The notes: a model not told the origin generated them from the sequence alone. DNA of 64,000 nucleotides from an uncultured Chloroflexia bacterium (GCA_963831745.1 CAWHRD010000005.1:20341-84340), one strand, 5' to 3'. Shown: positions 5,260 through 60,109, counted from the first letter of the stretch. A program made the numbers and translations.

Positions 5260-5262
5260 GGG

Positions 5263-21916: not shown

Positions 21917-24586
21917 TCAGGGCAGGCGTCGCACCCAGACGGCGCCCGGCATGCCCCGACCGGCGTTCTCGTCCCACCCCGCGACGCCCAGGCCGACGGC
22001 GACCTCCAGCGTGTCCGACGCCGCGACGGCATACGGGCCGAAACCCGCGAACGCCGGATCCGTCGCCACGCACCGCCAGGCCCGGCCGTCGGTCGAGTCC
22101 CAGATGCCGCCGAGACAGCTCGAATCCCCGGACGGTCCCGCGGCCAGGAAGCCGGAGGGCGTCGCGGTCACGCTGAAGACCTGGCCGTTCGCGGGCGTCT
22201 CGACCGAGCCCTCGGACCACGTGGTGCCCGCGGTCGACCACCAGGCGCGCACACCTCGAGCGGCCTCGCCGGCGGAGATCCCCAGCACGGCGACGACGCC
22301 GTCGCGAGCCGCCACGCCGGTCGCCTGCGTCCCGAGCGCCGCCACGTCGCCGAACATCGGGTCGTCCGGGACGCGCGTCCAGGTCGACCCGTCGGGCGAC
22401 GTCCAGATCGCCGCGCGACCCGAGACCACGCCGGCCGCGACGAACTCGCCGTCCGTTCGGGCAACGGCCTCGATGCCCCCGCCCTCCAGCGGCGCCTGGT
22501 CGTCGAGCTTCGTCCACCGGGCACCGTCACTGGATGTCCAGACGTAGGCCCGGATCGGATCGAGCCCGCAGTTGAGCCGGCACGCGGGATCGCGGCGTCC
22601 CACCGCGAGCCAGCCGTCGTCCGTGGCGATCACGTCCGTGACCTCGATGTCGTCGGTCCCGAGGGCGGGCACGGGGAAGGCGTCGGCATGCTCAGTCCAC
22701 GCGAGCCCGTCGGAGGACGTCCAGCTCGCCGGCCGATCGTCGATGGTACCCACCGCCACGAGGCCCCCCGGTCCGGTGGCGAGCCGTCCCGGGGCGTCCG
22801 TCCCTCCGCCGCTCGCCTGCCGATGCCAGGTGAGCCCGTCCGGAGAATTGAGGAAGACGTGATCGCCGTCCAGCGCGCCGCCGACGGCGACGAAGCGGCT
22901 CCCCGTCCAGACCACGTCCTGGAGCTGCACGCCGCTCACCGCCTCCTGGGACGGGACCGGGGCCCAGGCTCCCGGCTCCGGCGATGCCGTCGGCACGGCC
23001 GCCGGAGCCTCCGGCGATCCCACGAGGGAGAACGCGCTGTAGCCGGCCGCCGAGTCGACCTCCGCGTAGCCGGCGATGACGACCCGAGTGCCGTTGGTGG
23101 CGAGGTCGACGTCGTGGAGCGCCGTCACGTCGGACGGTTGCGGGACGCCCTGGACCGCCGTCCATCCTTCGCCGTCCGCCGACGACCAGAGCGAGATCGC
23201 TTCGCCCTCGGTCGACAGCGCCAGGAAGCCCTCGCGGTACGCGATGACGCGGGAGAAGGACGGGACGCCCGCCGGCTCGACCACGCGCCAGTCGGCGCCG
23301 TCCCCGATGAGGACGGCCGGCTGGTCGCCGGGACCGGCGACCGCCACGAAGCGCGCTCCCGACGCGGCCGCCGCGGAGAACGCCGGGGAGCCTGCACCCG
23401 GCCGCGTGAGCGCGGGGACCGGGACGCTGGTCCACGTCTCGCCGTCCGTCGAGCCCACCGCGAACGGCCAGGCGGCCCATCGGTGTCGTTGACGCCGATC
23501 GCCTCGCAGCCGAGCCCCACGGCGAGCAGCACACCGTCCGGAGTTTGCGGTCACGTCGACCGGGCCGCATGCGCCCTGCCCGCCCGGGAGCGTGTGGTAC
23601 CCGCCGATGTCGAACGCGGCCGCGTCCGGCATCCGCCTCCAGGAGACGCCATCGGCCGAGAGCCAGACCGCAGCGCGCGGGGAATCCTCTTCGTACATCG
23701 TGCCGACGACGACATACGCGGACCCGCTCCACGTGACCGCCGCCAGGTGCGCGGCCGCCGTCCCAGGGAAGTCCGACCGTTCCCACGTCCTCGCATCCGG
23801 GGATCGCCACGCGCCGGCGACAATGGCGTCGCCATCCTCCACCCACCCGATGGCCACGAAGCCGGGCGGACCCCACGCCACGTCGATCATCCCGGGATTA
23901 GGCCCGTCCACGTAGATGGCGTTGCCGATCGAGAGGGCGGTGTTCTTCGTGGCCTGATCCCACGCGAGGCCGTCGGTCGAGCGCCAGGCACCGGCAGTGC
24001 CGCCCGATGGCGCCTGCATGTCTTCGAACTCACGGGCGCCGACCAGGGCGAACGTCGTCGGTCCGGCCGCGATCGCCACCGGGACCGCCATGCCCCCCTC
24101 GAACATCGGCGGGATCGCGCCGACCTGCCAGGCCGGCGCCGGGCTCGGCGCGGGCTCCGCGCTGGCGTCCGGCCCGGGGCTCACCGGCACCACGACCGCG
24201 GGAGCCGAGGGCGTCGGGACGACGACGGCGGGCAGCCGGTCGTGGAGCAGGAAGGCGCCGGCGGCGGCGAGCCCCAGGAGGGCCACCAGCAGGAGCGCGG
24301 TGGCGGCCACGAGGACCAGGGTCCGGCTGGCCGCCGGACGCCGGGCGGGCTGCCCCGCGATCGCCGCGGCGACCGCGGCGTCGAGCCGGGCCGAGGTGGC
24401 GAGCTCGGCCGGCCGGCGCAGGGCGGCCGCGTCGCCGCGCAGGCCGGCCACGCCGCGGGCGCAGGCCGGGCAGCCGGCGAGGTGGTCGGCGAGGAGGGCG
24501 TGCTCGGGCGGGGCGAGCCCGAAGTCGAGGGCCACCGCGGCGAGGGCCAGGACGCGCTCGTGGAGGCGCCGCTCGGTCGCGCTCAT
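21917..24586 (-). CDS. ZAS-type anti-sigma factor with one TM segment and a ~750-aa extracytoplasmic Asp-box (BNR-like) repeat domain
   Basis: Track ORF trimmed to the ATG at 24586, which overlaps the sigma-factor stop (ATGA). HLAGCPAC fits HxxxCxxC. TM segment LVLVAATALLLVALLGLAAAGAFLL. Eleven W/S-x-D-G-x-x-W repeats. One ~25-codon stretch looks out of frame (see findings). Confidence 0.75.
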   Translation of the reverse strand: MSATERRLHERVLALAAVALDFGLAPPEHALLADHLAGCPACARGVAGLRGDAAALRRPAELATSARLDAAVAAAIAGQPARRPAASRTLVLVAATALLLVALLGLAAAGAFLLHDRLPAVVVPTPSAPAVVVPVSPGPDASAEPAPSPAPAWQVGAIPPMFEGGMAVPVAIAAGPTTFALVGAREFEDMQAPSGGTAGAWRSTDGLAWDQATKNTALSIGNAIYVDGPNPGMIDVAWGPPGFVAIGWVEDGDAIVAGAWRSPDARTWERSDFPGTAAAHLAAVTWSGSAYVVVGTMYEEDSPRAAVWLSADGVSWRRMPDAAAFDIGGYHTLPGGQGACGPVDVTANSGRCAARRGARLRGDRRQRHRWAAWPFAVGSTDGETWTSVPVPALTRPGAGSPAFSAAAASGARFVAVAGPGDQPAVLIGDGADWRVVEPAGVPSFSRVIAYREGFLALSTEGEAISLWSSADGEGWTAVQGVPQPSDVTALHDVDLATNGTRVVIAGYAEVDSAAGYSAFSLVGSPEAPAAVPTASPEPGAWAPVPSQEAVSGVQLQDVVWTGSRFVAVGGALDGDHVFLNSPDGLTWHRQASGGGTDAPGRLATGPGGLVAVGTIDDRPASWTSSDGLAWTEHADAFPVPALGTDDIEVTDVIATDDGWLAVGRRDPACRLNCGLDPIRAYVWTSSDGARWTKLDDQAPLEGGGIEAVARTDGEFVAAGVVSGRAAIWTSPDGSTWTRVPDDPMFGDVAALGTQATGVAARDGVVAVLGISAGEAARGVRAWWSTAGTTWSEGSVETPANGQVFSVTATPSGFLAAGPSGDSSCLGGIWDSTDGRAWRCVATDPAFAGFGPYAVAASDTLEVAVGLGVAGWDENAGRGMPGAVWVRRLP

Positions 24587-25345: not shown

Positions 25346-26829
25346 CCGTTGCGTTCAACTCCACACCCCGCACGCCTGGCCCGGTGTGCTGCACGCAACC
25401 GAACGTCGGACGCATCTATGAAGGAGCGGGTCGGGTCAAGGTGGCGGGCGGGGATTTATTCTCTTTCTCCTCGTTCGTCGGTCGGTCGTGCGGGGGCCGC
25501 TGGCACCAGGGTCGACCGGACGCTGCCGGTCAGTCATCTATTCGAGGGCGGTCCTCATGGTGGGCATGCGGCCGGGAGGCGGCTCAATCAAGGAGGCGGC
25601 CGTCGGGTGAGGCCATGACATGACAGCGAGCGCGCCGGGACCGGCCGGCGCGACGGACGGGGGAGCGCGCGGGTACGTCCCGGCAGCCCCGCTCGTCGCG
25701 GAGGGCATAGAAGGCGAGGATGAGGAGCCGGCGGGCGAGGGCGACCCGCGCGATCTTGGTCCCGCGGCGTCCCGCGATCGGGTCGGCGAAGCGGTGGAGC
25801 TGGGCCGACCGGGAGGACCCGATCTTGGTGGCGGCCTCGACCATCGCCCAGCGCAGCCAGCGGCTGCCCTGCTTGCTGATGTGGCCGCGCCGGACGTGGT
25901 CGGCCGAACTGCGCTCGGTGGGGGTCAGCCCGGCCCACGACGCGAGGTGGTCGGCGGAGGGGAAGCGGGTCACGTCGCCCACCTCGGCGATGATCGTGGC
26001 CGCGTTCAGGATCCCGATCCCCGGGATCGGCAGCAGCCGGCGCACCCGGTCGTCGCCCCGGAAGGCCCGGACGATCTCGCGGTCGGCCGCGATGATCTCG
26101 CGGGCGAGGTCGTCGATCGAGCCGCAGGCAGGCGGCCAGGCGCGCCGCGATGACCGGCGGCAGCTCGAGGGTCGCGAGCTGCTCGCGGCCCTGCCGGCCG
26201 AACAGGTCGCTCACCGGGACCGGGACCCCCGCGTCCGCGCAGAGCGCGTGGACCTGGCACTTGAGCCGGGAGCGGATCCGGACGAGCGAGGCCCGCATCC
26301 GGACGAGCCGGCGGAGCTCGCGGACCTCGGGCGGCGCGATCCAGGCCTCGGGCAGCAGGTTCGTGCGCAGGAGGTGGGCGAGGGTCGCGCGCGTCGACCG
26401 CGTCGTTCTTGACCCGCCCCGCGCCGATCGCCTTGGTCGCGAGGGGATGGGCCATGTGGGCCTCGATCCCGGCGTCGGCGAGGAGGTCGGCGAACCAGCC
26501 CCAGCCGTACGTCGCCTCGAAGGCGACCGAGACCGGCTCGGGCTCGAGCTCGCCGAAGACCCGCCGGAACGCGTCCGGGCTGTGCTCGAAGCGTCGCGAG
26601 AGGATCGTGTCGCCGGCCTCGTCGAGGGCCACCACGTGGCTGACCTTGCGGTGCAGGTCCACTCCGAGGTACACCATTGCCTGGGCCTCCCTTCTGATCG
26701 CTTGCGTCTGGCAGATCCTCATCAGGATCGCGCCATAAGCATCGGAGCGGAGGCCCGCTCCTTCATGGCATCAAGGAACCGGCACGCCGGACGGCCGGCA
26801 GCGCCGGATGTTGGTGCAACGCAAACCGG
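25346..26829 (-). mobile_element. IS110-family insertion sequence (ends approximate)
   Basis: Contains a DEDD-type IS110 transposase gene. Candidate imperfect terminal inverted motifs are CCGTTGCGTT (25346-25355) and the reverse complement of CAACGCAAACCGG (26817-26829). The ~1.48 kb length is in the usual IS110 range. Both flanks are locally less GC-rich. Confidence 0.5.
25584..26677 (-). pseudogene. IS110-family (DEDD) transposase, two frameshifts
   Basis: Three successive frames encode the protein: MVYLGVDLHRKV...KNDAVDAR, then TLAHLLRTNLLPEAWIAPPEVRELRRLVRMRASLVRIRSRLK...CLRL, then IDDLAREIIAADREIV...LLPIPGIGILNAATIIAEVGDVTRF...KQGSRWLRWAMVEAA. The shifts are near 26386-26393 (a CG repeat) and 26118. 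Length is 3n+2. GGGAGG lies upstream of the ATG. Confidence 0.85.
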
Positions 26830-26982: not shown

Positions 26983-28440
26983 CTAGAAGGTGACTCGCTC
27001 GAGGATCTTCACGAGGTAGCGGGAGCGCATCTGCTCGGTCGCCAGGATCTGCTTCGTCGGCGGCAGGCGCAGGATGACGCCGAGGATGGCCGCCATCGCC
27101 CGGTGGCTGAACAGCGCCCGGTTGTCGAAGATGCAGTCCTGGAGCCGGCCGCGCTCGATCGCCATCAGCACCGTGCGATGGAGCGTGTCCACCGGCGTGA
27201 CGACGCGTGCGGCGCGGGCCTCGAGCCAGAGCCCATTCGTCGGGCAGACCCGGGTGCACACGCCGCAGCCCAGGCAGGTCCCGGCGTCGAGCGCCGCCCG
27301 GCGCTTATGGGGCTTGGTGGGATCGTTCGCAGAGACGAGCGTCATCGCCTCGACCGGGCAGGCGTCGACGCACTTGCCGCAGCCGTTGCAGAGCTCGTCC
27401 GCGACGTGCGGCGAGAAGTTCGTGGTGTGCACGGGATCGAGCATCCCGAAGCGGCGGGCCGCGATCATCGCCTCGCAGCAGCAGCCGCAGCAATTGCAGA
27501 TGAAGTTGACCGAGCGCTGCACGTTCTCGCCGAACTGGACCAGGTTGTGGCCGTACGCCTCCTGGAGCAGGTTCGTTCCCTCGACCCGGTCGACCCGCCG
27601 GGCGTAGCCGTGGCGGATCAGCGCGTCGGCCGTGCCCCCGAAGGTCATGCAGATCCCAAGGGGAGCCGCGCAGGCGCGCCCGAGGTGTTGCATCTTGTGG
27701 CGGCAGTAGCAGGTGCCGACGCCCATGTGCTCGGCCGTGCCGATCACCTCGCTGGCACGCTCGTAGTCGAGGACATGGAGCCCGCCGTCCCGAACGTCGG
27801 CGCGCGGCGCCGGGCGGGACCCCTCGGTCGGGCGAGGCGCCCACGGGCCGGGTGCCGTCGGGTCAGGCGCCGTCGGGCGAGACGCGGCAGGGCCAGGCGC
27901 CGTCGGCCCACGGCCCGCCACCGTGCTGGCGCGCTTCGATCGCGCGGCCGAGCCTCGTTCCGCGCTCTCCGCCAGCGCCGGCTCGTTCACGAAGACGCGC
28001 CCGAGCTGGGTCTGGCCGTGGGTGAAGAGGTTGAGGATGAAGTCGTCCTCGACGGTGAGGTACTGGTAGAAGAGCTCGCTCAGCAGCTTCTGGTCGACGT
28101 CGTCGCGGACCCGCATCATCGAGAACTCGAAGAATCCGGCCATCGGCGGCGGCAGGATGTAGATGGGCCCGTCCGGGCCCTCCATGTCGAGCAGCACCGC
28201 GCGCGAGGCCAGCCCGTCGAGAACGCGGTGCGCCTCGGCCTCGCTCGTCTTCCAGATTCGGGCGGCGGCGGCCACCGTCACCGGCTTGATCGGAAGCCGG
28301 GCGACGAGCTCCGCCTCGCGCTCGCTGAAGAGCAGGGCGAGGATCCGGAAGAGGATGCCGGACGGGGGAGCTCCCTGGGGGAAGCGGTTCAGCCGGTTGG
28401 CGAGGTGCCCGTAGGCGCCCCGGGTCGTGACGTGGGCCAT
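26983..28440 (-). CDS. 4Fe-4S dicluster domain protein with a Cys-dense CNCCGCCC motif
   Basis: Track ORF trimmed to ATG (MAHVTTRGAYGHLANRLNRFPQG...). Motifs CYCRHK, FICNCCGCCCE, CNGCGKCVDACP and CLGCGVCTRVCP. Has an internal Pro/Ala-rich insert encoded by short DNA repeats (27851-27906). Confidence 0.7.
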   Translation of the reverse strand: MAHVTTRGAYGHLANRLNRFPQGAPPSGILFRILALLFSEREAELVARLPIKPVTVAAAARIWKTSEAEAHRVLDGLASRAVLLDMEGPDGPIYILPPPMAGFFEFSMMRVRDDVDQKLLSELFYQYLTVEDDFILNLFTHGQTQLGRVFVNEPALAESAERGSAARSKRASTVAGRGPTAPGPAASRPTAPDPTAPGPWAPRPTEGSRPAPRADVRDGGLHVLDYERASEVIGTAEHMGVGTCYCRHKMQHLGRACAAPLGICMTFGGTADALIRHGYARRVDRVEGTNLLQEAYGHNLVQFGENVQRSVNFICNCCGCCCEAMIAARRFGMLDPVHTTNFSPHVADELCNGCGKCVDACPVEAMTLVSANDPTKPHKRRAALDAGTCLGCGVCTRVCPTNGLWLEARAARVVTPVDTLHRTVLMAIERGRLQDCIFDNRALFSHRAMAAILGVILRLPPTKQILATEQMRSRYLVKILERVTF

Positions 28441-28620
28441 GCCATTCCTCGTCGGCTCCGCGGCCGCGGCCACGCCGCCCACGCCGGGCGGCGCGACCAC
28501 CCTCGCCGCCACACGAGGTGCTGGCAAGGGCGATTCCGCCAGCGTTCGCCCGTGCCGTCGGTCACCATCGGTGGTTGCATCGGTCCGGTACGTTTGGACC
28601 TTGGGGGAACGCGGCCGCGG

Positions 28621-28692
28621 CGCCATGCTGGCGTCGGGCAGGTGCGCCATGCTTGCGGCCGGCAGGTGCGCCATGCTGGTGGCGGCGGATGG
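28621..28692. repeat. 24-nt x3 tandem repeat in a divergent spacer
   Basis: CGCCATGCTGGCGTCGGGCAGGTG, CGCCATGCTTGCGGCCGGCAGGTG, CGCCATGCTGGTGGCGGCGGATGG. Confidence 0.7.
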
Positions 28693-28759
28693 GCCGTGCG
28701 GCGGCTCGCAGGCGCGCCGCGGACACGGGCCACGCGGGCCGTCGAGCAAGGCGCTGGGG

Positions 28760-29665
28760 GTGGTGATCACGAAGGACACGGGTCGTTGGGTGGGGGGGCT
28801 GCTTCGCCGCGAGGCCGCGGGCCTGGTGGCGGCCGTGGTCGTCCTGGTCCTCGTGCTCGCGTTCCGGGTGCCGTCGCAGCACGCCTGGCCGACGGGCCAG
28901 GAAGCGTACTGCTACTGGTTCCCGGGCCTCGCCGACCCCTACGCCCGGTCGAACTGGACCCAGCCGATCGCCTACGTCTACTCCCCGGCCTTTCTGCAGG
29001 CGATCGCCCCGCTGAAGGCGCTTCCGTGGGAGGCGTTCCTCGCCGCCTGGACCATGATCCTGCTGCTCGCCGTCCGCTACCTGGCCGGGGCACGCCTGTG
29101 GGCGGTCGCGATCGCCTTCGCCGTCCTCGAGGTGCTGGGCGGAAACATCCACCTGCTGCTCGCGGTCGCGATCGTGGCCGGGTTCCGGTGGCCCGCCGCG
29201 TGGTCGTTCGTGCTCCTGACGAAGGTGACGCCCGGCGTCGGCCTGCTCTGGTTCGCCGTGCGGCGGGAGTGGCGCAACCTCGGGATCGCGCTCGGGGCGA
29301 CCGCGGCGCTCGTGCTGGTGTCGTGGGCGGTCGCGCCGGCGGCGTGGGCCGACTGGCTGGACGTGCTCGCGGCGAGCACGACGAAGACCGTCGGCACCTG
29401 GGCGGCGATCCCGATCCCGGTCTGGCTGCGCCTCCCGTTCGCTGCCGCGGTGGTCATCTGGGGTGCCCGGACCGATCGCGCGTGGACCGTCCCGGTGGCC
29501 GCGATGCTGGCTCTGCCCGCCCTGTGGTTCGGTGGCGCCTCGATGCTCCTGGCAGCGGTGGCGCTGGCCAGCGGGCGCGTCCGCGGCGCGGCGCCGCCGC
29601 CCGCGGGCCCGGGTCGCTTCGGCTTCCCGTGGCGACCGCGTCGCCCGGCGTTCCGGACGGCCTGA
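28760..29665 (+). CDS. Polytopic membrane protein, GT87/DUF2029-like glycosyltransferase (start uncertain)
   Basis: The hydrophobic core starts after the GTG at 28760/28763. YVYSPAFLQAIAPL, GGNIHLLLA and LTKVTPG resemble GT87 signatures. The upstream part of the track ORF is the repeat region. Confidence 0.55.
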   Translation: MVITKDTGRWVGGLLRREAAGLVAAVVVLVLVLAFRVPSQHAWPTGQEAYCYWFPGLADPYARSNWTQPIAYVYSPAFLQAIAPLKALPWEAFLAAWTMILLLAVRYLAGARLWAVAIAFAVLEVLGGNIHLLLAVAIVAGFRWPAAWSFVLLTKVTPGVGLLWFAVRREWRNLGIALGATAALVLVSWAVAPAAWADWLDVLAASTTKTVGTWAAIPIPVWLRLPFAAAVVIWGARTDRAWTVPVAAMLALPALWFGGASMLLAAVALASGRVRGAAPPPAGPGRFGFPWRPRRPAFRTA

Positions 29666-29825: not shown

Positions 29826-30278
29826 ATGGGAGCCTCACAGGAGGCGCCGGTGAACAAGGACTCCAGGGCGTTCGCACGCGACCTTGGCGCGATCATCCTC
29901 GTGGCCGTCGCGTGTCCCGCCGCGCTCTTCGGCAGCACGCTCCTGGGAGGCGCGATCCTCGGCTGTGCCGCCGACGGCCTCACCCCGGAGTGCGCCCTCA
30001 ACGGCATCCTGATCTCGCCCTTCCTCCTCCTCGGCGCCGGGTTCCTCGCCGGGTTCCTGACGAGCGGGTGGCCGGGCCTGGGCTTCGTGGCGTTCGGGGT
30101 CATCGCCGGGCTGGTCGCCATCCCGCTCCTCACAGCGGCCGTCGGCAACCCCGTTCCGGTCGACCCGTTCAGCGGGTTCCTGGCGCTGTTCTTCTTCGGG
30201 CCGCCCGTGCTGCTCGGCTACGGTGCCGCCCGCGGCGTGGTGCGGCTGATCGCACGCAGGCGGGCCGCGGGCGACTGA
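29826..30278 (+). CDS. Hypothetical membrane protein (150 aa, about 4 TM)
   Basis: Track ORF trimmed to the ATG at 29826. Strongly hydrophobic with high GC3. Confidence 0.55.
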   Translation: MGASQEAPVNKDSRAFARDLGAIILVAVACPAALFGSTLLGGAILGCAADGLTPECALNGILISPFLLLGAGFLAGFLTSGWPGLGFVAFGVIAGLVAIPLLTAAVGNPVPVDPFSGFLALFFFGPPVLLGYGAARGVVRLIARRRAAGD

Positions 30279-30474: not shown

Positions 30475-30801
30475 ATGGGGACTTACGAGGACACGGACAT
30501 GGACAGCGTCGAAGTCCTGGGAGCGATCCTGATCTGGCTGCTCGTGGTCGGGATCTTCATGCTGCGTGCGCCCGGCGGCAGCACGCGCTCGCTGATCGCG
30601 CCGTGGCTCGCCCTGACCCTGCTGAGCATGGCCGTGCTCTTCATCGTCCTGTTCATCGCGACCTACGGCCTGCTCTTCGTCCTCGGGAAGGAAGCCGCGA
30701 CGGTGGGCGTGATCCTGAGCGCGATCGTCCTCGCCGCCACGCCGGTCGTGTGGGCCGTCGTGCTCCACCGGCGGGCGCACAGCGCCGCGACGCAGGGCTG
30801 A
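30475..30801 (+). CDS. Small membrane protein (108 aa, 3 TM)
   Basis: Hydrophobic segments ILIWLLVVGIFML, LALTLLSMAVLFIVLFIATYGLLFVL and VILSAIVLAATPVVWAVVL. Its stop lies 6 nt before the next start. Confidence 0.6.
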   Translation: MGTYEDTDMDSVEVLGAILIWLLVVGIFMLRAPGGSTRSLIAPWLALTLLSMAVLFIVLFIATYGLLFVLGKEAATVGVILSAIVLAATPVVWAVVLHRRAHSAATQG

Positions 30802-30807: not shown

Positions 30808-31527
30808 GTGCCGGCCAGGACGATGGGAGACCGCGGGCCCGGGCAGGGCAACGGCCGAAAGCTCGGCGTCTTCCTCGGCATCACCGCCTTCCCGGCGCTG
30901 GTCACCGGCTACCGCGCCGTCATCGACGCCCAGCCCGACCTGCAGGTCGTCGGCGCCGTCGACGATCCCGCCGCGCTGTGCGACGCGATTGCCCGGTCGA
31001 CGGCCGACGTCGTCATCACGGAGTGCCTCCCCTACGCCCGCAACGGCTGCGTGTCGTTCCAGGCGATCGAGACGATCCGTGCGGCCAAGCCGGCGGTCAA
31101 GATCCTGGCGGTGGAATGCCGCTGCGGCAGCGAGCAGTTCTCGCTCGCCATCAAGGCCGGGGCCGACGGCTTCCTGACCCGCGAGGCCCAGCCCTCGGAC
31201 GTCCTCGACGCCGTCCACCGGGTCGCGCGGGGCGAGACGTATGTGAGCCCCGCGATCGTCACCCGGATGGTCAACACCTACGTCCTCCGCGCGCCCGACA
31301 CCGCGGCCGAGGATGCCTTCGAGGCGCTGAGCGAGCGGTCGCGCGAGATCTTTCGTCTCGCCGCCTTCGGGCACACGAACCGCGAGATCGCGCGCACGCT
31401 CCACCTGTCGGAGCAGACGGTGCACAACCACCGCGCCGCGATCATGGAGAAGCTCGGCTTCCACGACCGGGTCGACCTGCTCAAGTACGCCCTGCGCACC
31501 GGCGTGATCCAGGCGGCAGACCTGTGA
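30808..31527 (+). CDS. LuxR/NarL-type regulator with degenerate, Cys-containing receiver domain (paralogue 1)
   Basis: C-terminal HTH: LSERSREIFRLAAFGHTNREIARTLHLSEQTVHNHRAAIMEKLG. The receiver-like N-domain reads DVVITECLPY where DxxxxD(phospho-Asp)LxMP is expected, AVECRC at the T/S position, and FLTRE where a Lys is expected. Confidence 0.8.
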   Translation: MPARTMGDRGPGQGNGRKLGVFLGITAFPALVTGYRAVIDAQPDLQVVGAVDDPAALCDAIARSTADVVITECLPYARNGCVSFQAIETIRAAKPAVKILAVECRCGSEQFSLAIKAGADGFLTREAQPSDVLDAVHRVARGETYVSPAIVTRMVNTYVLRAPDTAAEDAFEALSERSREIFRLAAFGHTNREIARTLHLSEQTVHNHRAAIMEKLGFHDRVDLLKYALRTGVIQAADL

Positions 31528-32189
31528 CGCGCCTCCGAGCGGCGGCCCGGCGCCTGCGCCCGACGACTGGCCGGGGCGCGGTCGGGCTGGGCATCGCGGG
31601 CGTCGCCCTGGTCGCCGTCCTCGTGGTCGGGATCGCCGGCTTCGCGGCGGCGTTCTCCTGGGCCTACGCCGCGTTCGGGTTCCACCCGACCGAGAGCGCC
31701 CAGTCCTGGGCGGCACTCCCGCCGCAGTACGCCGTGCCGGCGGCCTGCCAGAGCTGCCACGCCCCCGAGTACACGCCCTGGCAGGCGTCGGCCCACGCCG
31801 CGGTCGCCTGCGACACGTGCCACGGGCCGCTCGCGAAGCACGCCGCCACCGCCACCACCGTGTCGGCCGCGGCCGCCGCGGCGACCGAGATCACGACACC
31901 GACGTCCGACCTGTGCGTGCTCTGCCACGCCCAGGTCCCGGGGCGCCCGCTGGGCTTCCCCGCCGTGGACCTGACCCTGCATTACCCGGGTGGGCCGTGC
32001 CTGGGCTGCCACGACAGCCACGCCGCGACGGCCCTCCGGCCGCCCGAGATCTCGCACGCGCTGGACAACCTGCCGGCGTGCATCACCTGCCACAAGCCGG
32101 CCGGCCTCAAGCCGGTCCCCGTGGGCCACGAGGAGGCGGCCGACTCGGTCTGCCGCTCCTGCCACCTGCGGCCAACGGCCAGCCAGTAG
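31524..32189 (+). CDS. Membrane-anchored hexahaem c-type cytochrome
   Basis: The GTG at 31524 overlaps the regulator stop (GTGA). N-terminal TM segment GLGIAGVALVAVLVVGIAGFAAAF. Six CXXCH sites: CQSCH, CDTCH, CVLCH, CLGCH, CITCH, CRSCH. Confidence 0.8.
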   Translation: MTRLRAAARRLRPTTGRGAVGLGIAGVALVAVLVVGIAGFAAAFSWAYAAFGFHPTESAQSWAALPPQYAVPAACQSCHAPEYTPWQASAHAAVACDTCHGPLAKHAATATTVSAAAAAATEITTPTSDLCVLCHAQVPGRPLGFPAVDLTLHYPGGPCLGCHDSHAATALRPPEISHALDNLPACITCHKPAGLKPVPVGHEEAADSVCRSCHLRPTASQ

Positions 32190-32199
32190 GAGCGTCCCG

Positions 32200-33072
32200 A
32201 TGAGCGAGACCGGCACGGCCGGCGCGGAAGACCAGGCGGGCGGCATGACGCTGTCGCGGCGACGCGTGCTGCAGGCCGGGCTGGCCGCCGTCCCCGCCCT
32301 GTGCGGCGCGAGGCTGCTCTCGGCGGCCCTCGGCGCACCCGCGGAGGACGCCCGGGCGGCCGAGCCCGCGCCGATCGAGCCGGTCCCGCCCGTGCCGGAC
32401 TACGACCCGTCGGCCCACGACTGGGCGTTCGTCATCGACACGACCACCTGCATCGGCTGCGGCCGCTGTGTCGAGGCCTGCAAGCTCGAGAACCACGTCC
32501 CCGAGGAACCCGAGATCAACCGGACCTGGGTGGAGCTCCACGTGCTCGCCCAGGACGGGACGGTCACCATCACCTCCCCGGACGGCGGCCGCGAGGGCTT
32601 CCCGGCGGACGGGACCGACGTGCCGGCCGACATCCGCGACGCCTACTTCGTCCCGCGGACGTGCATGCAGTGCGAGAACCCGCCCTGTACCTGGGTCTGC
32701 CCGGTGAGCGCCACCTTCCGGAGCGAGGACGGGGTCGTCTTCGTCGACGAGGGCCGGTGCATCGGCTGCGGGTACTGCATCGTCGCCTGCCCGTACGGCG
32801 CCCGCTACATCGTTCCCGCCGGCGAGACGACGCCCAAGGGCGTCGCCGGCGTCGTCGACAAGTGCACCTTCTGCTACCACCGCATCACGCGCGGCCTGGA
32901 GCCCGCCTGCGCGGAGGTCTGCCCGGTCAACGCGCGGATCTTCGGCGACCTCCGGGACGCCGGCAGCCCGGTGAGCATCGCCCTCCGCGAGAACCGGGTG
33001 CGGCAGATGAAGCCGGGCCTCGGCACCCGGCCGCGGGTCTGGTACACCGGCCTCGAAGGCGAGGTGATCTGA
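32200..33072 (+). CDS. Tat-exported 4x[4Fe-4S] ferredoxin subunit (NrfC/PsrB/DsrO/ActB2-like)
   Basis: Twin-arginine signal LSRRRVLQAG. Cluster motifs CIGCGRCVEAC, CMQCENPPCTWVCP, CIGCGYCIVACP and CTFCYHR...CAEVCP. Confidence 0.85.
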   Translation: MSETGTAGAEDQAGGMTLSRRRVLQAGLAAVPALCGARLLSAALGAPAEDARAAEPAPIEPVPPVPDYDPSAHDWAFVIDTTTCIGCGRCVEACKLENHVPEEPEINRTWVELHVLAQDGTVTITSPDGGREGFPADGTDVPADIRDAYFVPRTCMQCENPPCTWVCPVSATFRSEDGVVFVDEGRCIGCGYCIVACPYGARYIVPAGETTPKGVAGVVDKCTFCYHRITRGLEPACAEVCPVNARIFGDLRDAGSPVSIALRENRVRQMKPGLGTRPRVWYTGLEGEVI

Positions 33073-34599
33073 TGACGGCCCACGTCGCAGAGCGCCGGCT
33101 GACCCTCGACCCGCGAGCAGCCGCGCGGGCCGCCGCCCACGACATCGCGAGCATGCCGCGCGCGCTCAAGGCGTGGCTCGCCTTCCTGCTGGTGCTCTGC
33201 GCGGTCGGTGCCGTCGGCGCGCTCCTCGCCCTTCCCCGGCTGGGAGGTCCTCGGCACCAGTCCCAGCTTCGAGTGGGGCATCCTCATCACGGCCTACGTC
33301 TTCTTCGCGATCACCACGAGCGGCCTGTGCTTGGCGTCGTCGCTGGGCACGGTGTTCGGGATCGAGATGTTCCTGCCGCTCGAGAAGCGTCACGCGGTGC
33401 TGGCGCTGCTGACCCTGATCACCGCCTTCGGGATCATCGCCCTCGACCTGCACTACCCGGTCAGCATGGTCTTCGGCGCGGTGCTCAGCCCGTCGCCGTT
33501 CTCGCCGATGTGGTGGATGGGCGTCTTCTACGGCATCTACCTCGTCTTCCTCATGGTCGAGGTCTGGAGCATCTTCTCCAACCACTGGGGCATCCACCGC
33601 TGGGCGTGCGTGTGCTCGTCCGCGACCGCGGTCATCGCGCCGACCACGCTGGGCGCCGTCTTCGCGGTCCTCGGGGCCCGCCCCTACTGGCACGGCGCCT
33701 TCACGCCGCCGGTCATGGTCACGATGGCCGTCCTCTCCGGGACCGCCCTGCTGGGGATCGTCTTCTACTGCGTCCACCGCTACCGGCTGGCGGGCCACGA
33801 GCGGGCGCTGACGCTGGCGATCCCCGCGATCCGCCTGCTCATGTCGATCGGGCTGGTCGTCGCCGGGCTCGTCATCGTCTGGCAGATCCTGTGGGGGATG
33901 TACGGGGTCATCCCGGGTCTCTGCCGACGCGAACCGGGCGATCTTCGCCGGGCCGCTCGCGCCCTGGTTCTGGCTGGTCCGGGTCGGCCTCGGGCTGGTC
34001 GATCCCGCTGCTCCTCCTCGCTGATCCCGCGGACGCGCACGCCGGCCGGCCTCTTCGTCACCTGCTGCCTCGTCTTCCTGGGCATCTTCGCGGACAGGGC
34101 GATCTTCGTGAGCGCCGGCCAGATCGTCCCCGGGACGGCGGTCGGCGGCGTCGTCTCGAGCCCCTATGCCGAGTACGTGCCGTCGCTCGTCGAGGCCGCC
34201 ATCGTCATGGGCGCGTTCGGCTTCTTCGGGCTCGCCTACACGCTCGCCGAGCGGTACCTGCCGATGGGCGAGCACACGGGGCACCTCGCCGGCGGGTTCC
34301 TGGCCGGAAGCCACCCGGCACCCGCGATGGTCGACGCCGGCGTGGCCTGGGTGGCCGAGGAGGACGAGGAGGTCAGGACGGACGGGGAGCCCGAACGGCC
34401 GGCATGCCGCGGCGCGCACGCGCACGCCGCCGCTCCGGCCCCGGCGCCGAGCCTCGCATCGCCAGCCGTCGATCCGCCGACGCCGCCACGGCCGAGTCGA
34501 CGTCCGCGACCCGGGCTCGATGCGACCGCCGTCCGGCGGACCCGACCGCCGTCGACGGCCATGCCAGGCCGGCCGCCAGATCGACGGAGGGCCCCGCTG
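33072..34599 (+). pseudogene. NrfD/PsrC-type polytopic membrane (quinone-interacting) subunit; frame broken at least 4 times as sequenced; 3' end uncertain
   Basis: The ATG at 33072 overlaps the FeS-subunit stop (TGATG). The membrane-protein-like sequence has to be read in frames 0, 1, 2, 0 and 1 in turn, switching near 33234-33237, 33915-33918, 34001 and 34020 (for example GPLAPWFWLVRVGLGLV, IPLLLL, LIPRTRTPAGLFV). The last TM ends near 34270. The frame then stays open into the next gene. Confidence 0.65.
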
Positions 34600-35370
34600 A
34601 TGGCCCGCCGGATCGGACGCCTCGTCCTCGTCCTCGCGGCCGTCGGGGTCGTGATCGGCATCGGCGTCGGGATCGGGCTCGCCGTCATCAACATCGGGCT
34701 CGAGAAGCAGGAGGCTGCGGTCCCGTCGCCGACCGCCACCCCGCTGGCCACCGCCACGCCGCTGCCGACGCCGGTCGCCTCGAGCGGCCCGGGCAACCTG
34801 ATCGCCGTGATGCCGACGAGCGACTGCGCGGCCTGCCACAAGACGCCGGGCGCCGCCGTCAACGTGCCGCCGATCGGCCACCCGCTCGAGGGCTGGGGCA
34901 GCTGCACCTCATGCCACGCGAACGACCGCCTCGTGAAGACGGCGCCGGGCCACTCGGGGATCCACGCGGAACAGTGCCTGGTTTGCCACACGGCGACGAC
35001 CCCCGCGGCCGAGGACCGCCCGCACTCCCTGGCCGCCAACTCGAAGTGCCTCTCGTGCCACGGCTCGCTCGCCCCGCTGCCGGCCAGCATGAAGGGCCGC
35101 TCGGAGAGCACCTGCTTCCTGTGCCACCAGGGGACGTCGCAGCCTGCCGTCGCCTTCCCGCACCCGCTGCCGGCCGACGGCAAGTGCCTCACCTGTCACG
35201 TCGCGGGGAAGGTGGGGGCGGTGCCGGCAGACCACGCGACGCGCACGGACAAGCAGTGCACCGCGTGCCACCTGCCGTCGCCCGACCAGCCGCGGGTGGC
35301 TCCGCACGACCTCAAGGCGTACGAGGGCATGTGCGCGTTCTGCCACGGGAAGACCGGCCAGACGGACTGA
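34600..35370 (+). CDS. Membrane-anchored octahaem c-type cytochrome
   Basis: ATG at 34600 (MARRIGRLVLVLAAVGVVIGIGVGIGLAV, a TM anchor). Eight CXXCH sites: CAACH, CTSCH, CLVCH, CLSCH, CFLCH, CLTCH, CTACH, CAFCH. In frame with upstream sequence, so a fusion cannot be excluded. Confidence 0.75.
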   Translation: MARRIGRLVLVLAAVGVVIGIGVGIGLAVINIGLEKQEAAVPSPTATPLATATPLPTPVASSGPGNLIAVMPTSDCAACHKTPGAAVNVPPIGHPLEGWGSCTSCHANDRLVKTAPGHSGIHAEQCLVCHTATTPAAEDRPHSLAANSKCLSCHGSLAPLPASMKGRSESTCFLCHQGTSQPAVAFPHPLPADGKCLTCHVAGKVGAVPADHATRTDKQCTACHLPSPDQPRVAPHDLKAYEGMCAFCHGKTGQTD

Positions 35371-35495: not shown

Positions 35496-35725
35496 GCCCG
35501 GACCCTCGTCCGGACCGGTTGGCGATCATCTCGGGTCCCCTCGCCCGCGGCGCCCTCGACTCCGTGTCCATCGTTCGCGTGCCCCTCGTCCCGGCCGCAA
35601 GGGGCCACAGGGATCGCCGGAAGCGACGGATGGCCCTACGCCGACCCCCCCGCCGTTGACCGATAGTGATACGCGCGTCGCGAGCGTCCGACGAAGGACG
35701 CCCTGCGCGAGGTGACGAGGTCGGC

Positions 35726-36430
35726 GTGAGCACGAACGGGAACGTACCGGGGGGCGGCAGGCGGCTGGGCGTGCTCCTGGCCATCTTCGACTTCCCGATG
35801 CTCAACGTCGGGCTGCGCGAGGTCATCGACGCCGAGCCGGACATGGAGGTGGTCGGCGAGCTCCACGACCGGGATACGATGCGCGAGGATGTCCTCCGCT
35901 CGCCTGCCGACGCCGTGATCACCGAGTGCCTGCCGTACGACCGGTCCGGCTGCAGCTCGTTCCAGATGATCGAGTCGGTCCGCGCCGCCAAGCCGTCGAT
36001 GAAGATCCTGGCCGTGGAGTGCCGCTGCACGAGCGAGCAGTTCTCGCTGGCGATCAAGGCCGGTGCCGACGGCTTCCTCACCCGCGAGGCCCAGGCCTCC
36101 GACTTCGTGACGGCCCTGCGCTCGATCAGCCGCGGCCAGACCTACGTGAGCCCGTCGATCGTCACCCGGATGGTCAACACCTACGTGCTCAAGACGCCGG
36201 GCGGGGCGCTCGAGGATCCGTACGAGACCCTGAGCGAGCGCGAGCGCGAGGTGATGCTGCTCGCCGCGGTCGGCCACACGAACCGGGAGATCGCCCGCAC
36301 GCTCCATCTCTCGGAGCAGACGGTCCACAACTACCGGGCCAACGTGATGGAGAAGCTCGGCTTCCACGACCGGGTCGAGCTCCTCAAGTACGCCATCCGC
36401 CGCGGCCTCATCGACGTCGCCGACCTGTAG
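35726..36430 (+). CDS. LuxR/NarL-type regulator with degenerate, Cys-containing receiver domain (paralogue 2)
   Basis: GTG at 35726 was chosen by alignment with paralogue 1. Identical blocks include VITECLPY, KILAVECRC, SEQFSLAIKAGADGFLTREAQ, IVTRMVNTYVL and HTNREIARTLHLSEQTVHN. Confidence 0.8.
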   Translation: MSTNGNVPGGGRRLGVLLAIFDFPMLNVGLREVIDAEPDMEVVGELHDRDTMREDVLRSPADAVITECLPYDRSGCSSFQMIESVRAAKPSMKILAVECRCTSEQFSLAIKAGADGFLTREAQASDFVTALRSISRGQTYVSPSIVTRMVNTYVLKTPGGALEDPYETLSEREREVMLLAAVGHTNREIARTLHLSEQTVHNYRANVMEKLGFHDRVELLKYAIRRGLIDVADL

Positions 36431-37503: not shown

Positions 37504-37628
37504 CGTCGGGGGTGCGTGGCGGGCACGTCGGGGGTGCGTGGCGGGCACGCCGGGGGTGCGTGGCGGGCACGCCGGGGGTGCGTGGCGGGCACGTCGGGGG
37601 TGCGTGGCGGGCGCGTCGCGGGCGCGTC
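37504..37628. repeat. 22-nt x5 tandem repeat plus a partial sixth copy
   Basis: CG(T/C)CGGGGGTGCGTGGCGGGC(A/G) repeated head-to-tail with no spacers. Starts 43 nt after the stop at 37461. Confidence 0.85.
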
Positions 37629-42562: not shown

Positions 42563-42624
42563 CCACTTCCGCTCCCCCGCGGATTTCGGCTACGCTCCCG
42601 CCCCAACGGAGCCGAGGAGCGCAC

Positions 42625-45600
42625 GTGACCTGTCCCGCCTGCGGGCACCAGAACCCGGCCGGCATGAAGTTCTGCGGCGAGTGCGGAACCCGCCTGGCGA
42701 GCGGGTGCCGCGCGTGCGGCTTCCAGAACCCGCCGGGTATGAAGTTCTGCGGCGAGTGCGGAACGCTGCTCGCGACGACCTCGGGAGGCGCTCCGGGCGG
42801 CGCAGCGGGCGGAGCGGCGGGGGTTGCCCAGCCTTTGGCGGCCGACCCCTCGGCGGCGTCGGGCGCGGTTCCCGCATCGATCCCGACGGCCGCGGCCGTC
42901 ACCGAGCGGCGCCTCGTCAGCGTGCTGTTCGCGGACCTCGTCGGCTTCACGAGCCGCTCCGACAGCACCGATCCCGAGCAGGTCCGCGAGTTCCTGGCGC
43001 GCTACTTCGAGCTGTGCCGGGAGATCGTGGAGCGCTACGGCGGCACGGTCGAGAAGTTCATCGGCGACGCCGTGATGGCCGTCTGGGGCACGCCGGTGGC
43101 CCAGGAGGACGACGCCGAGCGGGCCGTGCGAACGGCCCTGGACCTCGTCGACGCGGTGCGCCACCTCGGCCGCCAGGCCGGCGACGAGGCGCTGGAGCTG
43201 CGGGCCGGCGTCCTCACCGGCGAAGCGGCGGTAACCCTGGGCGCCGTCGGTCACGGGATGATCGCGGGCGACCTCGTCAACACGGCGTCGCGGCTCCAGT
43301 CGGTGGCACCGCCGGGGACCGTGCTCGTGGGCGAGACCACCAAGCGCGCGGCGTCGGGCGCCATCGCGTTCGAGGCCGCCGGCGACCAGCTCCTGAAGGG
43401 CAAGCCCGCCCCGGTGCCGGCGTGGCGGGCGCTCCGGGTGGTGGCCGAGCGCGGCGGCGCCGGCCGCGCCGAGGGCGTCGAAGCCCCGTTCGTCGGCCGC
43501 GACGACGAGCTGCGACTGCTGAAGGACTTCCTCCACGCCACCTCGCGCGAGCGACGCGTCCGGCTCCTCTCCGTGACGGGCCAGGGCGGCATCGGGAAGA
43601 GCCGTCTCGCCTGGGAGTTCCTCAAGTACATCGACGGCGTCAGCGAGACGATCTACTGGCACCAGGGCCGCTCCCCGTCCTTCGGGGAGGGCCTCACGTT
43701 CTGGGCGCTCGGCGAGATGGTCCGCCGGCGCGCGGGGCTCCGGGAGGGCGACGACGCCGCGACCACCCACGAGCGGATCGCCGCGACCCTCACCGAGTTC
43801 GTCGACGACGAGGACGAGCGGCGCCGGCTGGAGCCCGCGCTGCTGTCCCTCCTCGGCGTCGGCGACGCCCCGACCGGCGGGCGCGCTGAGCTGTTCAACG
43901 CCTGGCGGACGTTCTTCGAGCGGATCGCGCTGCAGGGCACGACCGTGCTCGTCTTCGAGGATCTCCAGTGGGCCGACGCGGGGCTCATGGAGTTCATCGA
44001 CCACCTGCTCGAGTGGTCGATCGGCTACCCGATCCTCGTGATCACGCTGGCGCGGCCCGACCTCCTGGAGCGGCGACCCGACTGGGGCGCCGGCCGACGG
44101 AACTTCGTGGCGCTCGCGCTCGGGCCCCTGTCCGACGGGGCGATGCGGGAGCTGCTCGCCGGGCTCGTCCCGGGTCTGCCGTCGACGACGGTGCGGGCGA
44201 TCCTCCAGCGCGCCGACGGGATCCCCCTGTACGCCGTCGAGACGATCCGGATGCTCGTGGAGGACGGGCGCCTGGAGGAGTCGGACGGAGTCTACCGCCC
44301 GGTTGGCGACCTCGGCGAGCTGCAGGTCCCCGACACGCTCCACGCCCTCATCGCGGCCCGCCTCGATGCCGTCGAACCGGCCGATCGCGCGCTCCTGCAG
44401 GACGGCTCGGTGCTCGGCCAGTCGTTCTCGGTGGCCGCGCTCGCGGCCCTGACCGGCGAGCCGGAGGACGTCCTGGAGCCGCGCCTCCGCGGCCTGGTCC
44501 ACCGCGAGATCCTCCACCTCGACACCGACCCGCGGTCGCCCGAGCGCGGGCAGTTCGGCTTCACGCAGGCCCTGGTCCGCGAGGTTGCCTACTCGACGCT
44601 GGCGAAGCGGGACCGGCGGGCGAAGCACCTCGCCGCCGCTCGGTACTACGAGAGCCTGGGCGACGAGGAGGTCGCCGGCGTCCTGGCCACGCACTACGTG
44701 GACGCCTACCAGGCGGCTCCCGACGGGGCCGAGGGCGACGCCGTCGCGGCCCAGGCGCGCATCGCGCTCCGCGCCGCCGCCGACCGCGCCACCGCGCTGG
44801 GCGCCCACGAGAGCGCCATCGGCTACTGGGAGCGTGCCCGAACGGTCACCGCGGACCCCGCCGACGAGGCCGACCTGCTCGAGAAGATTGGACTCGCCAA
44901 CCGGAACCTCGGCCACTTCGTGGCCGCCGAGGCGGCCTTCCGCGACGCGCTGGAGCGCTACCGCGGGCTGGGCGATCGCGTGGGCGCCGCGAGGGCCTCG
45001 TACGGCCTCGGGCGCTCGCTCGGCTCGGCCGGCCGGCTCCTCGAGGGGATGCCCGTCGCCGAGGCCGCCGCCGCCGACATCGCGGACCTCGCGCCCCACC
45101 GGGTGCTGGTCGAGCTCTGGCTCGCGCTGGCCTCTGGCCACAGCCAGGTCGGCGACCAGCCCAGGGCCCTCGACCTCTGCGACCGGGCGCTGACCGACGC
45201 GGAGCGGCTGCGGCTGCCGGACCTCGTGATGGACGGTCTGCAGCTCAAGGGCGGCATCTACTGGCTGATGGCCCGCCCGACCGAAGGCCGAGCGCTCACC
45301 GAGTCGTCCCTGCGACTGGCCGAGCGGGCCGGCGCCGGGCCCCAGACGGCCCGGGCCGCCTTCGGCCTGTCGCTGTCGCTGTTCGACGAGGACCCCCGGG
45401 CGGCGGCCGAGCTGGGCCGGCGCACCGTCGAGCTGTGCCGGCGCTTCGGCCTCGGGCCGATGCGCCTGACCACGCTGATGAACACCGCCGAGGTGTCGCT
45501 GGAGGTCGGCGACTGGGCCTGGCTGGAGGCCGAGCTCGATGCCGTCGATCGCGACGAGCTCGAGCCGTCGGATCGGGTGACGTTCGACGTGGCGCGGGTC

Positions 45601-56143: not shown

Positions 56144-56256
56144 CGGGGCCGCTCCTCGGTGCGTTGGTGCTGACGGTAGGTGGAAGGTGACGGTGGTGGG
56201 AAGGGGCCGTTGGCGCTCGGCGGGTGGTGCCGCCGGCCGGGCGTCGGGACCGGACG

Positions 56257-57690: not shown

Positions 57691-57921
57691 CGAGCCTCCT
57701 CCACGCCGCCCGTGCGCCGGGCACGCCGCCCCACCCTGCGAGGGTGGACGGCGCGACCCGTCCCGCGACAGGGACCTTCGGCCCGAATCCGGCACGGTTC
57801 GGGCGGTGCTCGGCCTCCGCGCCCGGGCTCCGCGCGTGGGGCGGCGGGCGGGCCCGGGTTGCGCGCGTGGGGCGGGCCCGGGCCCGGCGCGGCCGGGCGG
57901 GGGAGGCGCGGTCGGCCGCCG

Positions 57922-59732: not shown

Positions 59733-59875
59733 CGGTTCTCCTCGAATGTGCCGGTCCGACCGCTGCGAACCCGGCTGTCGTGCCTCGACCGGGCGCGGTC
59801 CGGGCGTGCTCACGCCGTCGCCCCATACGATACCGGCGACCCGCTCCCGGCGGGTCCGCCGCCGTCGGCGGCATC

Positions 59876-59887
59876 TATCGTTCGATA
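59876..59887. promoter_or_regulatory. AT-rich inverted repeat TATCG-TT-CGATA in the divergent chdC / regulator-hemA spacer (candidate operator)
   Basis: Arms are 5+5 bp, extendable to a 14/18 palindrome (ATCTATCGTTCGATACAT). It stands out in otherwise GC-rich DNA. Confidence 0.25.
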
Positions 59888-60109
59888 CATCCTCGCGCCG
59901 GAGACCGGACCGATGCGCACGGTCGAGGGCTCGGTTATTGTGCCCGGGGGCGGATGGGGCCGCTGGGGGCTCACGGGCAGAATCCCGTTCAGGTGTCAGG
60001 CTGCGGGGCTCGCCCGCGGCAACGAGGGCCGGTCGAGGCGAACCGGAAGGCCGCGTCGAAGTGCGACCTCGAGGCTGGGAGATATGAGCGAATTGACAAG
60101 GTTCGAGCG

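Follow-up and report, generated by a model that had tools for sequence, protein, structure and literature searches.

The 64,000-nucleotide stretch analysed here (the window; GCA_963831745.1, CAWHRD010000005.1:20341-84340, positions counted from its first letter) comes from an uncultured Chloroflexia bacterium. At 31524–35370 on the plus strand it carries a cassette of four genes encoding a membrane-anchored hexahaem cytochrome c, an iron–sulphur protein with four [4Fe-4S] clusters exported by the twin-arginine (Tat) route (the FeS subunit), an NrfD-type membrane subunit and a membrane-anchored octahaem cytochrome c. The cassette is an operon not characterised so far, which Chloroflexota of soil and fresh water keep across the class Limnocylindria under purifying selection. 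By analogy with the Nhc, Cbc4 and ACIII complexes, the four proteins probably form a respiratory-type membrane complex that would conduct electrons between the quinone pool and an extracytoplasmic partner, and we hold this reading with moderate confidence. An earlier note on this DNA had named the same four components, and Pfam matches and sequence motifs confirm that all four are real. A literature search found no description of the module in Limnocylindria or Ellin6529, and we know of no physiological study of any cultured member of Limnocylindria.

Subunits of the cassette and their conservation

The FeS subunit (32200–33072, plus strand) is a protein of 290 residues that has no domains other than Fer4 and matches the Pfam profile Fer4_11 (PF13247) at 2.8e-20. 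Direct reading of the sequence shows a twin-arginine signal, SRRRVLQ, at the N terminus (MTLSRRRVLQAGLAAVPAL). The cysteines are arranged in four motifs, CxxCxxCxxxC, CxxCx4CxxxCP, CxxCxxCxxxCP and CxxCxnCxxxCP, which together provide 16 residues for four clusters, and the 16 positions are conserved at 96–100% in 72 sequences. With these 16 cysteines and the twin-arginine signal, the protein has the features of the four-cluster subunits of the complex iron–sulphur molybdoenzyme (CISM) type (PsrB, NrfC and DsrO; Fer4_11). The best NCBIfam match is DsrO, at 190 bits against a cut-off of 200. TtrB, NrfC, ArrB, HybA and QrcC are also matched, all far under their cut-offs; the scores are 138 of 378 bits for NrfC, 111 of 400 for QrcC and 96 of 420 for HmcB. 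In the PDB, the subunit is most similar to PsrB (2vpw_B, 3e-44) and also matches ArrB and the ActB chains 6f0k_B, 6lod_B, 8k9e_B and 6btm_B. As judged from these profiles, the FeS subunit is PsrB/DsrO-like.

The NrfD-type gene (33072–34600, plus strand, with its ATG at 33072) is frame-broken in this contig, and the protein is described here in its corrected form. The corrected protein matches Pfam NrfD (PF03916) at 78.4 bits (9.5e-22; cut-off 25.8) over profile positions 2–311 of 313, the whole domain; the uncorrected open reading frame (ORF) reaches 45.9 bits (7.9e-12) over positions 2–233. None of the curated equivalogs of NCBIfam matches the subunit, DsrP, HmcC, QrcD and TIGR03148 included. 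The AlphaFold2 (AF2) model of an 86% identical orthologue, P0001, has a mean predicted local distance difference test (pLDDT) score of 76.7 and shows 10 long helices followed by a disordered C-terminal tail of about 100 residues. A Foldseek search with this model gave as closest structures the ActC subunits of four ACIII structures (E 5e-10 to 4e-8, template modelling (TM) score 0.67–0.71, 14–17% identity), among them ActC of Chloroflexus, a member of the Chloroflexota; ActF and then PsrC follow, and the TM scores overall lie between 0.64 and 0.72. The model predicts a 10-helix, ActC-like fold, which has the polytopic architecture of the NrfD/PsrC superfamily. In the window, the tail lies at about 34290–34598; it is disordered, rich in Pro, Ala and acidic residues and probably faces the cytoplasm. 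Its length varies, adding up to about 140 residues in relatives (total protein length 421–545 residues).

A profile search of 1.84 billion representative sequences with NrfD returned 177 clusters at E ≤ 1e-30, a number that rises to 1637 at E ≤ 1e-3. The next relatives beyond the family give weak scores to the DsrP, HmcC, QrcD or NrfD models, all far below the cut-offs. Three such relatives stand in different contexts: P0328 lies in a classical operon with molybdopterin, FeS, NrfD and TorD-like proteins, P0320 adjoins a small cytochrome and a LuxR regulator, and P0338 adjoins an FeS protein and a c7-like cytochrome. The contexts are mixed, and the NrfD lineage therefore sits among 10-helix anchors that serve molybdoenzymes or cytochromes.

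The two cytochromes account for all 14 CXXCH sites that had been counted in the cassette, six in 31524–32189 and eight in 34600–35370. No further CXXCH occurs in the 64-kb window in any of the six frames, so the window holds no multihaem NapC/NirT-like gene, and the 14 sites are far beyond chance. Both proteins begin with a hydrophobic stretch visible in the sequence, in agreement with the membrane anchors proposed for them. The hexahaem protein (31524–32189, plus strand, 221 residues) has a short linker behind its anchor and matches the Pfam families Paired_CXXCH_1, Cytochrom_c3_2 and Cytochrome_C7. In the alignment of its orthologues, the six CXXCH motifs are accompanied by six further invariant His residues, one per haem; because every haem has such a partner, the haems appear to be bis-His ligated and of the electron-transfer type, with no catalytic site. 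The octahaem protein (34600–35370, plus strand, 256 residues) has a Pro/Thr/Ala-rich tether of 40 residues (31–59 in relatives), about 60% of which are Pro, Thr, Ser or Ala. An alignment of octahaem proteins shows a regular array of H-x7-CXXCH units with a period of about 24 residues. The idea that both cytochromes are built from one H-x(6-9)-CXXCH unit therefore describes the octahaem protein; His and CXXCH are x4, x5, x7 and x7 apart in the hexahaem protein. Against their seven or eight haems, the octahaem orthologues have five invariant His residues and one nearly invariant one. We also weighed a catalytic role of the cytochromes and do not favour it, as the hexahaem protein has a candidate distal His at every haem; an open catalytic haem site in the octahaem protein is unlikely to judge from its His pattern.

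The two cytochromes are distantly alike (26% identity, E 1e-6). In NCBIfam both give weak matches to DmsE/MtrA, GSU2203 and NrfH, with an additional weak match to ExtKL for the hexahaem protein and to NrfB for the octahaem protein; against the MtrA/DmsE decahaem family (TIGR03508) both score 30–31 bits, well short of the cut-off of 192. The octahaem profile matches MtrC, MtrA, NrfB and ActA in the PDB at 1e-6 to 1e-3 (MtrA 6r2q_A, 2.5e-6; ActA 6btm_A, 1e-3), and the hexahaem protein gives a marginal match to 8k9e_A. All database names of the cytochrome relatives are 'hypothetical protein' or a generic label.

The genes are closely spaced, and most of the coupling that had been proposed for them stands. 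TGATG at 33070 overlaps the FeS stop codon with the NrfD start. The GTGA at 31524 is also a true overlap, here of the stop codon of the upstream LuxR-type gene with the GTG start of the hexahaem gene, and joins the cassette to a regulator, not two structural genes. The hexahaem and FeS genes do not overlap; the gap of 10 nt between them contains AGGAG, 7 nt upstream of the FeS ATG. Scanning this region of 74% G+C for promoters and terminators detected nothing.

A scan of a genome collection with one genome per species gave 173 stretches that encode relatives, and the best 80 loci were fetched. The order hexahaem cytochrome, FeS, NrfD, second cytochrome is kept in every one of the 80 where the contig allows. 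Identity to the window proteins is 54–91% for NrfD, 47–88% for FeS and 33–81% for the two cytochromes, and the ratio of non-synonymous to synonymous substitution rates (dN/dS) is 0.12–0.24 across the four genes of the cassette, as compared with 0.29 for the regulator upstream. Six CXXCH motifs are present in the first cytochrome at 64 of 71 loci; the second carries eight haems in 27 loci, seven in 11 and five in 39, the pentahaem form being found in the more distant members. The orthologous loci are intact and under purifying selection, not uniformly degraded, and by its profile matches the cassette does not fall into a characterised clade: no curated equivalog is matched by NrfD, and the FeS subunit stays just under the DsrO cut-off.

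Comparison of the neighbourhoods shows that the cassette is syntenic and has no catalytic partner close by. When all proteins predicted at the loci were clustered, the only recurrent neighbours were a regulator and a small membrane protein; the LuxR-type gene lies directly upstream in most related loci, and a second regulator follows downstream in the closer relatives. In about 80 syntenic loci no molybdopterin protein, NrfA/HAO-type enzyme, oxidase or hydrogenase recurs beside the cassette, and no gene for a catalytic subunit is found in the operon or within about 8 kb, which bears out the earlier note on this point. In L018 (6391–7971, minus strand) and six other related loci, a 526-residue NapC/NirT-like multihaem cytochrome with about 10 CXXCH motifs is encoded a few kilobases away and is a possible partner.

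Among the best 80 loci, one lies on a contig binned as Sulfomarinibacteraceae; the others all bear the label Chloroflexota, Chloroflexia or Limnocylindria/Limnocylindrales. Candidatus Limnocylindria is listed in the NCBI taxonomy as a class within the Chloroflexota. The class is the former Ellin6529, and its reported habitats are soils, sediments and fresh waters. As the best related loci are almost all labelled Chloroflexota or Limnocylindria, the window is not actinobacterium-like, contrary to what had been suggested; by its close relatives the host is a member of the Chloroflexota, class Limnocylindria. The cpfC/chdC haem genes cited for the former assignment are present in the window, where a haem biosynthesis cluster at 57925–63936 encodes ferrochelatase, a chlorite-dismutase-family (ChdC-like) protein, glutamyl-tRNA reductase (hemA) and a fused HemC-HemD, with the gene of a MerR-type regulator between them. 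According to a recent preprint, the Chloroflexota are increasingly regarded as monoderm (10.1101/2025.08.19.671072).

Frame breaks in the NrfD gene

On this contig NrfD is not encoded by an intact ORF, which the earlier note had overlooked; four indels are mapped and a fifth is inferred. The frame shifts were located by translation and by a frame plot of G+C at third codon positions (GC3), and Viterbi decoding with a codon model independently gives the same switches. DNA alignment with the two closest relatives, L061 and L004, places the first break, a 2-nt deletion in a C run, at about 33233 (33228–33240). Breaks 2 to 4 are 1-nt insertions within about 100 nt, aligned at about 33922, 34001 and 34019 (33918–34022). 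The ORF as written, 33208–35370, spans from the middle of NrfD into the octahaem protein. Annotated relatives encode NrfD and the downstream cytochrome separately, in two genes that abut or overlap, and their NrfD ends in P-x-G-G-x-x. A second TGATG is found here at 34598, where TGA (34598–34600) overlaps the octahaem ATG at 34600, in a frame other than that of the as-written ORF. Because the orthologous genes are separate and this junction lies in another frame, a fifth frame change is required, between about 34395 and 34598 in the variable tail, where GC3 of the open frame drops.

When the segments are joined, the NrfD protein aligns at 80–88% identity and 100% coverage to intact proteins of 441–520 residues. 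The corrected gene is free of stop codons, has a GC3 near 100% in all of its segments and retains every residue that is invariant in the family; its dN/dS against the closest relative is 0.12, the lowest of the operon. Breaks of the same kind occur elsewhere in the window. A GH18 glycosidase gene (19771–21039, minus strand) and an IS110-family transposase gene (25690–26688, minus strand) are broken three times and twice, respectively, without stops; single frame changes are found in two further genes, at about 50530 (plus) and 57700 (minus), and possibly also at 23476–23541 (minus). Indel errors throughout the whole contig are suggested by this pattern. A single long-read metagenome project (isolate names MFD...) is the origin of most of the relatives, and at least one of the four cassette genes is frame-broken in 10 of 48 long-read loci as against none of 35 other, mostly short-read, loci (Fisher p = 0.004). 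The hexahaem protein is 100% identical to P0241, which is encoded on a single public contig of 162 kb, probably the one from which the window derives. Since other genes of the window are broken, the breaks are biased to long-read loci, the corrected NrfD shows no decay and an identical hexahaem protein stands on a public contig, the breaks most likely arose as consensus errors when long reads of a metagenome were assembled, and the gene is probably intact in the organism. Frame breaks of this origin can make a functional gene look fused or dead.

Two points weigh against an intact, separate NrfD gene. The first is that five breaks in 1.5 kb are far above the average of the window (Poisson p ~4e-5). 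Real indels could have killed NrfD very recently and left the operon a decaying, non-functional relic in this genome, and this would explain why the disruptions cluster in NrfD to a degree improbable at a uniform error rate, with the three partner genes intact and three of the indels outside homopolymers. A relic is nevertheless very unlikely in view of the missing in-frame stops, the retained invariant residues, the GC3 of the corrected segments and the lowest dN/dS of the operon, and the other broken genes of the window and the confinement of such breaks to long-read relatives speak against it as well. The second point is the fifth break, which is an inferred one, and the as-written frame could represent a true NrfD-octahaem fusion; this was set aside as unlikely, as the annotated orthologues are separate and the TGATG junction is present in the other frame. 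Programmed frameshifting was rejected: it would take four or five events, none of which is conserved in orthologues and none of which has a slippery motif.

Possible roles and neighbouring genes

The reading as a quinone-to-cytochrome conduit, first put forward in the earlier note, is supported by the architecture of the cassette, the lack of a catalytic gene within about 8 kb and the bis-His-type hexahaem protein; we adopt it because the module includes no catalytic subunit. Given the Tat signal and the N-terminal anchors, the FeS subunit and the haem domains of both cytochromes would lie at the outer face of the membrane. By comparison with its structural neighbours, the 10-helix NrfD/ActC-like subunit may bind (mena)quinone or quinol at this face. 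The exported four-cluster PsrB/DsrO-like FeS subunit would dock on NrfD, its clusters linking the quinone site to the membrane-proximal hexahaem protein, and the tethered octahaem protein would pass electrons onward to a partner encoded away from the locus. Oxidation of quinol, that is, electron export, is the direction we favour.

The operon would be co-transcribed with regulator 1, which precedes it, and regulator 2 lies behind it. Regulator 1 (30808–31527, plus strand) is of the LuxR/NarL type, with a GerE DNA-binding domain (1.4e-17) and an atypical receiver-like domain; regulator 2 (35666–36430, plus strand, exact start uncertain) is of the same type and 69% identical to it. The Response_reg scores of the two, 27.7 and 23.9 bits, are below the cut-off of 30.2. 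In the receiver-like domain of both regulators, Glu stands at the position of the phospho-acceptor Asp and Arg at that of the conserved Lys, as they do in 85 and 88 of 92 homologues, respectively; four Cys residues (ECLPY..GC and ECRC) are kept in about 80–90% of homologues. The domain thus looks incapable of phosphorylation. The loss of the Asp and the four conserved Cys residues suggest redox-dependent control; it is no more than a reasonable guess that both regulators switch the operon in this way, possibly as redox or metal-cluster sensors.

Several observations weigh against the conduit. The NrfD profile matches no chain of the PDB by sequence even at E = 10, and the assembly of one complex, its quinone site and its direction are drawn by analogy from homologues that are just 14–18% identical at NrfD. 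The AF2 model of the octahaem protein is of low confidence (pLDDT 70, predicted TM score 0.44; N-terminal helix at residues 2–34), and Foldseek with this model returned noise only, with no structural match. No cytochrome c maturation genes were seen in the window. The data fit at least three readings equally well, and extracellular electron transfer is only one of them.

A different role for the same proteins would be that of an ACIII-like housekeeping quinol:cytochrome c oxidoreductase in an aerobic chain, in which the tethered octahaem or pentahaem cytochrome would serve as an anchored carrier to a haem-copper oxidase and not in extracellular electron transfer. In monoderms, c-type cytochromes are anchored. 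ActC subunits, that of Chloroflexus included, come structurally nearest to NrfD, the FeS subunit matches the four ActB chains, and the hexahaem gene stands in the actA position, with its marginal match to 8k9e_A and that of the octahaem profile to ActA. The spread of relatives, at 173 stretches with the best 80 almost all from Limnocylindria, would fit a core function, and the more distant members have a pentahaem partner. We nevertheless regard this role as unlikely. The cassette has no ActB1 molybdopterin-like domain, no second NrfD (ActF) and no ActD or ActE, no locus has oxidase genes close by, the 11–14 haems exceed the needs of a simple quinol:cytochrome c link, and dedicated regulators suggest conditional expression.

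Electrons could also flow in reverse, as in Qrc, Nhc and Hmc, from cytochromes reduced by a hydrogenase or formate dehydrogenase, from Fe(II) or from reduced humics to menaquinone. The closeness of the FeS subunit to DsrO, the weak scores of distant NrfD relatives to DsrP, HmcC and QrcD and the description of Nhc, which has the same composition, as a TpIc3:quinone oxidoreductase (PMC8076601) are in line with this. All equivalog scores lie under their cut-offs, however, no periplasmic hydrogenase or formate dehydrogenase is encoded nearby in the window or the related loci, and sequence alone cannot give a direction; we consider reverse flow distinctly unlikely.

The most far-reaching reading would make the cassette either the principal quinol-oxidising complex of Limnocylindria or a conduit that spans the wall. 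As the former it would be a minimal ACIII relative that lacks the molybdopterin domain and uses a tethered multihaem wire in place of soluble carriers; as either, it would be switched by a new LuxR-type sensor with a Cys4 pseudo-receiver that responds directly to redox state. We put this forward tentatively, as a possibility that is fairly unlikely. Were the wall-spanning form true, abundant soil and freshwater Chloroflexota could respire minerals or humic substances. A class-wide cassette under purifying selection, with 11–14 external haems in a cell that probably has a single membrane, points to a kind of respiration that metabolic reconstructions do not yet include. This may be an unrecognised 'complex III' or a means to exchange electrons with minerals, humics or other cells as partners. 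The cassette would further provide another lineage whose Psr-type module has cytochromes instead of the molybdoenzyme, and a candidate family of redox-sensing regulators.

Upstream of regulator 1, a small membrane protein of about 105 residues (30484–30801, plus strand; coding by the codon model) has hydrophobic stretches that suggest three to four membrane helices and is without a Pfam or NCBIfam match. In 54 of 81 related loci a homologue occupies the corresponding position, and the protein might be an extra subunit of the complex. A second small hydrophobic protein without family assignment is encoded further upstream (29836–30278, plus strand). The gene at 26983–28779 (minus strand) encodes a Cys-rich 4Fe-4S dicluster protein with a low-complexity Pro/Ala insert at about 27790–27966, and has a tblastn match in 23 related loci. 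Intergenic tandem repeats occur at 37504–37627 and 28620–28718 (22 nt in 5.6 copies with 95% matches, and 24 nt in 4.2 copies, respectively). At 42583–46251 (plus strand) a large signalling protein combines a zinc ribbon, an adenylate/guanylate cyclase domain, AAA_16 and TPR repeats. Three MttB-family methyltransferase genes and the gene of a B12-binding corrinoid protein (52471–57759, minus strand) suggest demethylation of methylamine or glycine betaine, and purine catabolism genes (uricase, HIU hydrolase, OHCU decarboxylase and amidohydrolases; 518–5796) adjoin malate synthase.

Comparison with known systems

Hmc is one of the complexes that combine a cytochrome, an FeS protein and an NrfD-type subunit. 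Nhc, Cbc4 and ACIII follow this same logic, and the statement that FeS/NrfD pairs normally accompany a catalytic subunit leaves them out of account (PMC8076601; 10.1101/2025.04.14.648717). Nhc of Desulfovibrio is composed of cytochrome, FeS and NrfD subunits and is described as a TpIc3:quinone oxidoreductase. NhcABCD and Hmc share with the present cassette a multihaem cytochrome c, a 4x[4Fe-4S] protein, a 10-helix NrfD-like subunit, the lack of a catalytic subunit and a link between cytochrome and menaquinone (PMC8076601). They differ in having one soluble nine- or sixteen-haem protein in place of two membrane-anchored cytochromes with six and eight haems, and the cassette belongs to another phylum and has no NhcD equivalent in the operon. 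It is not an Hmc or Nhc complex by its scores, with HmcB far under the cut-off and no HmcC match.

In Geobacter sulfurreducens, Cbc4 (CbcS, CbcT and CbcU) is a proposed quinone-cytochrome c oxidoreductase that would feed extracellular electron transfer, its function being unproven (10.1101/2025.04.14.648717). Compared by architecture alone, Cbc4 resembles the cassette in its membrane-anchored multihaem cytochrome, borne on an unstructured linker, its 4x[4Fe-4S] protein and its integral membrane subunit. In contrast to Cbc4, the cassette has two cytochromes, hexahaem and octahaem, of the MtrA/NrfB-like repeat type, and is found in a monoderm-type lineage without periplasmic Ppc partners.

ACIII (ActABCDEF), which also occurs in the Chloroflexota, shares the ActC fold (TM score 0.67–0.71), an ActB-related FeS protein and an anchored multihaem gene upstream of FeS, like actA. 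The cassette departs from it in lacking the ActB1 domain, ActD, ActE and ActF, in having 14 haems as compared to six, and in an identity to ActC of 14–17%; the 290-residue FeS protein carries no molybdopterin-like domain and each locus has one NrfD gene, so that the resemblance is to ActC and not to the complex as a whole.

The PsrBC-type anchors are related through the FeS subunit, for which PsrB is the most similar structure, and through the distant NrfD relative P0328 in its molybdopterin operon. Unlike in PsrBC, no molybdopterin subunit or chaperone is found in about 80 loci, and NrfD has 10 helices instead of eight. Assignment to three other complexes fails in a similar way. For DsrMKJOP, DsrO stays under its cut-off, DsrP is not matched and no locus has DsrMKJ-like genes; for Qrc, the QrcC score is low, QrcD is not matched and there is no QrcB-like gene; for NrfABCD, the NrfC score is low, NrfB reaches 21 of 167 bits, TIGR03148 is not matched and there is no NrfA-like gene.

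Among Gram-positive bacteria, Thermincola potens and Carboxydothermus ferrireducens have anchored or wall-bound multihaem cytochromes across a monoderm envelope, with quinol-oxidising units related to CISM anchors proposed for them (PMC7829351, PMC6703420). These are anaerobic, thermophilic Firmicutes with demonstrated reduction of metals or electrodes, which sets them apart; NCBIfam and PDB profile matches show no homology to their cytochromes beyond generic multihaem families. As far as profiles and modelled folds can tell, the cassette resembles the known complexes in architecture and fold and belongs to none of them at the level of equivalogs. It is an unstudied module of an abundant, uncultured class, built on a familiar design principle.

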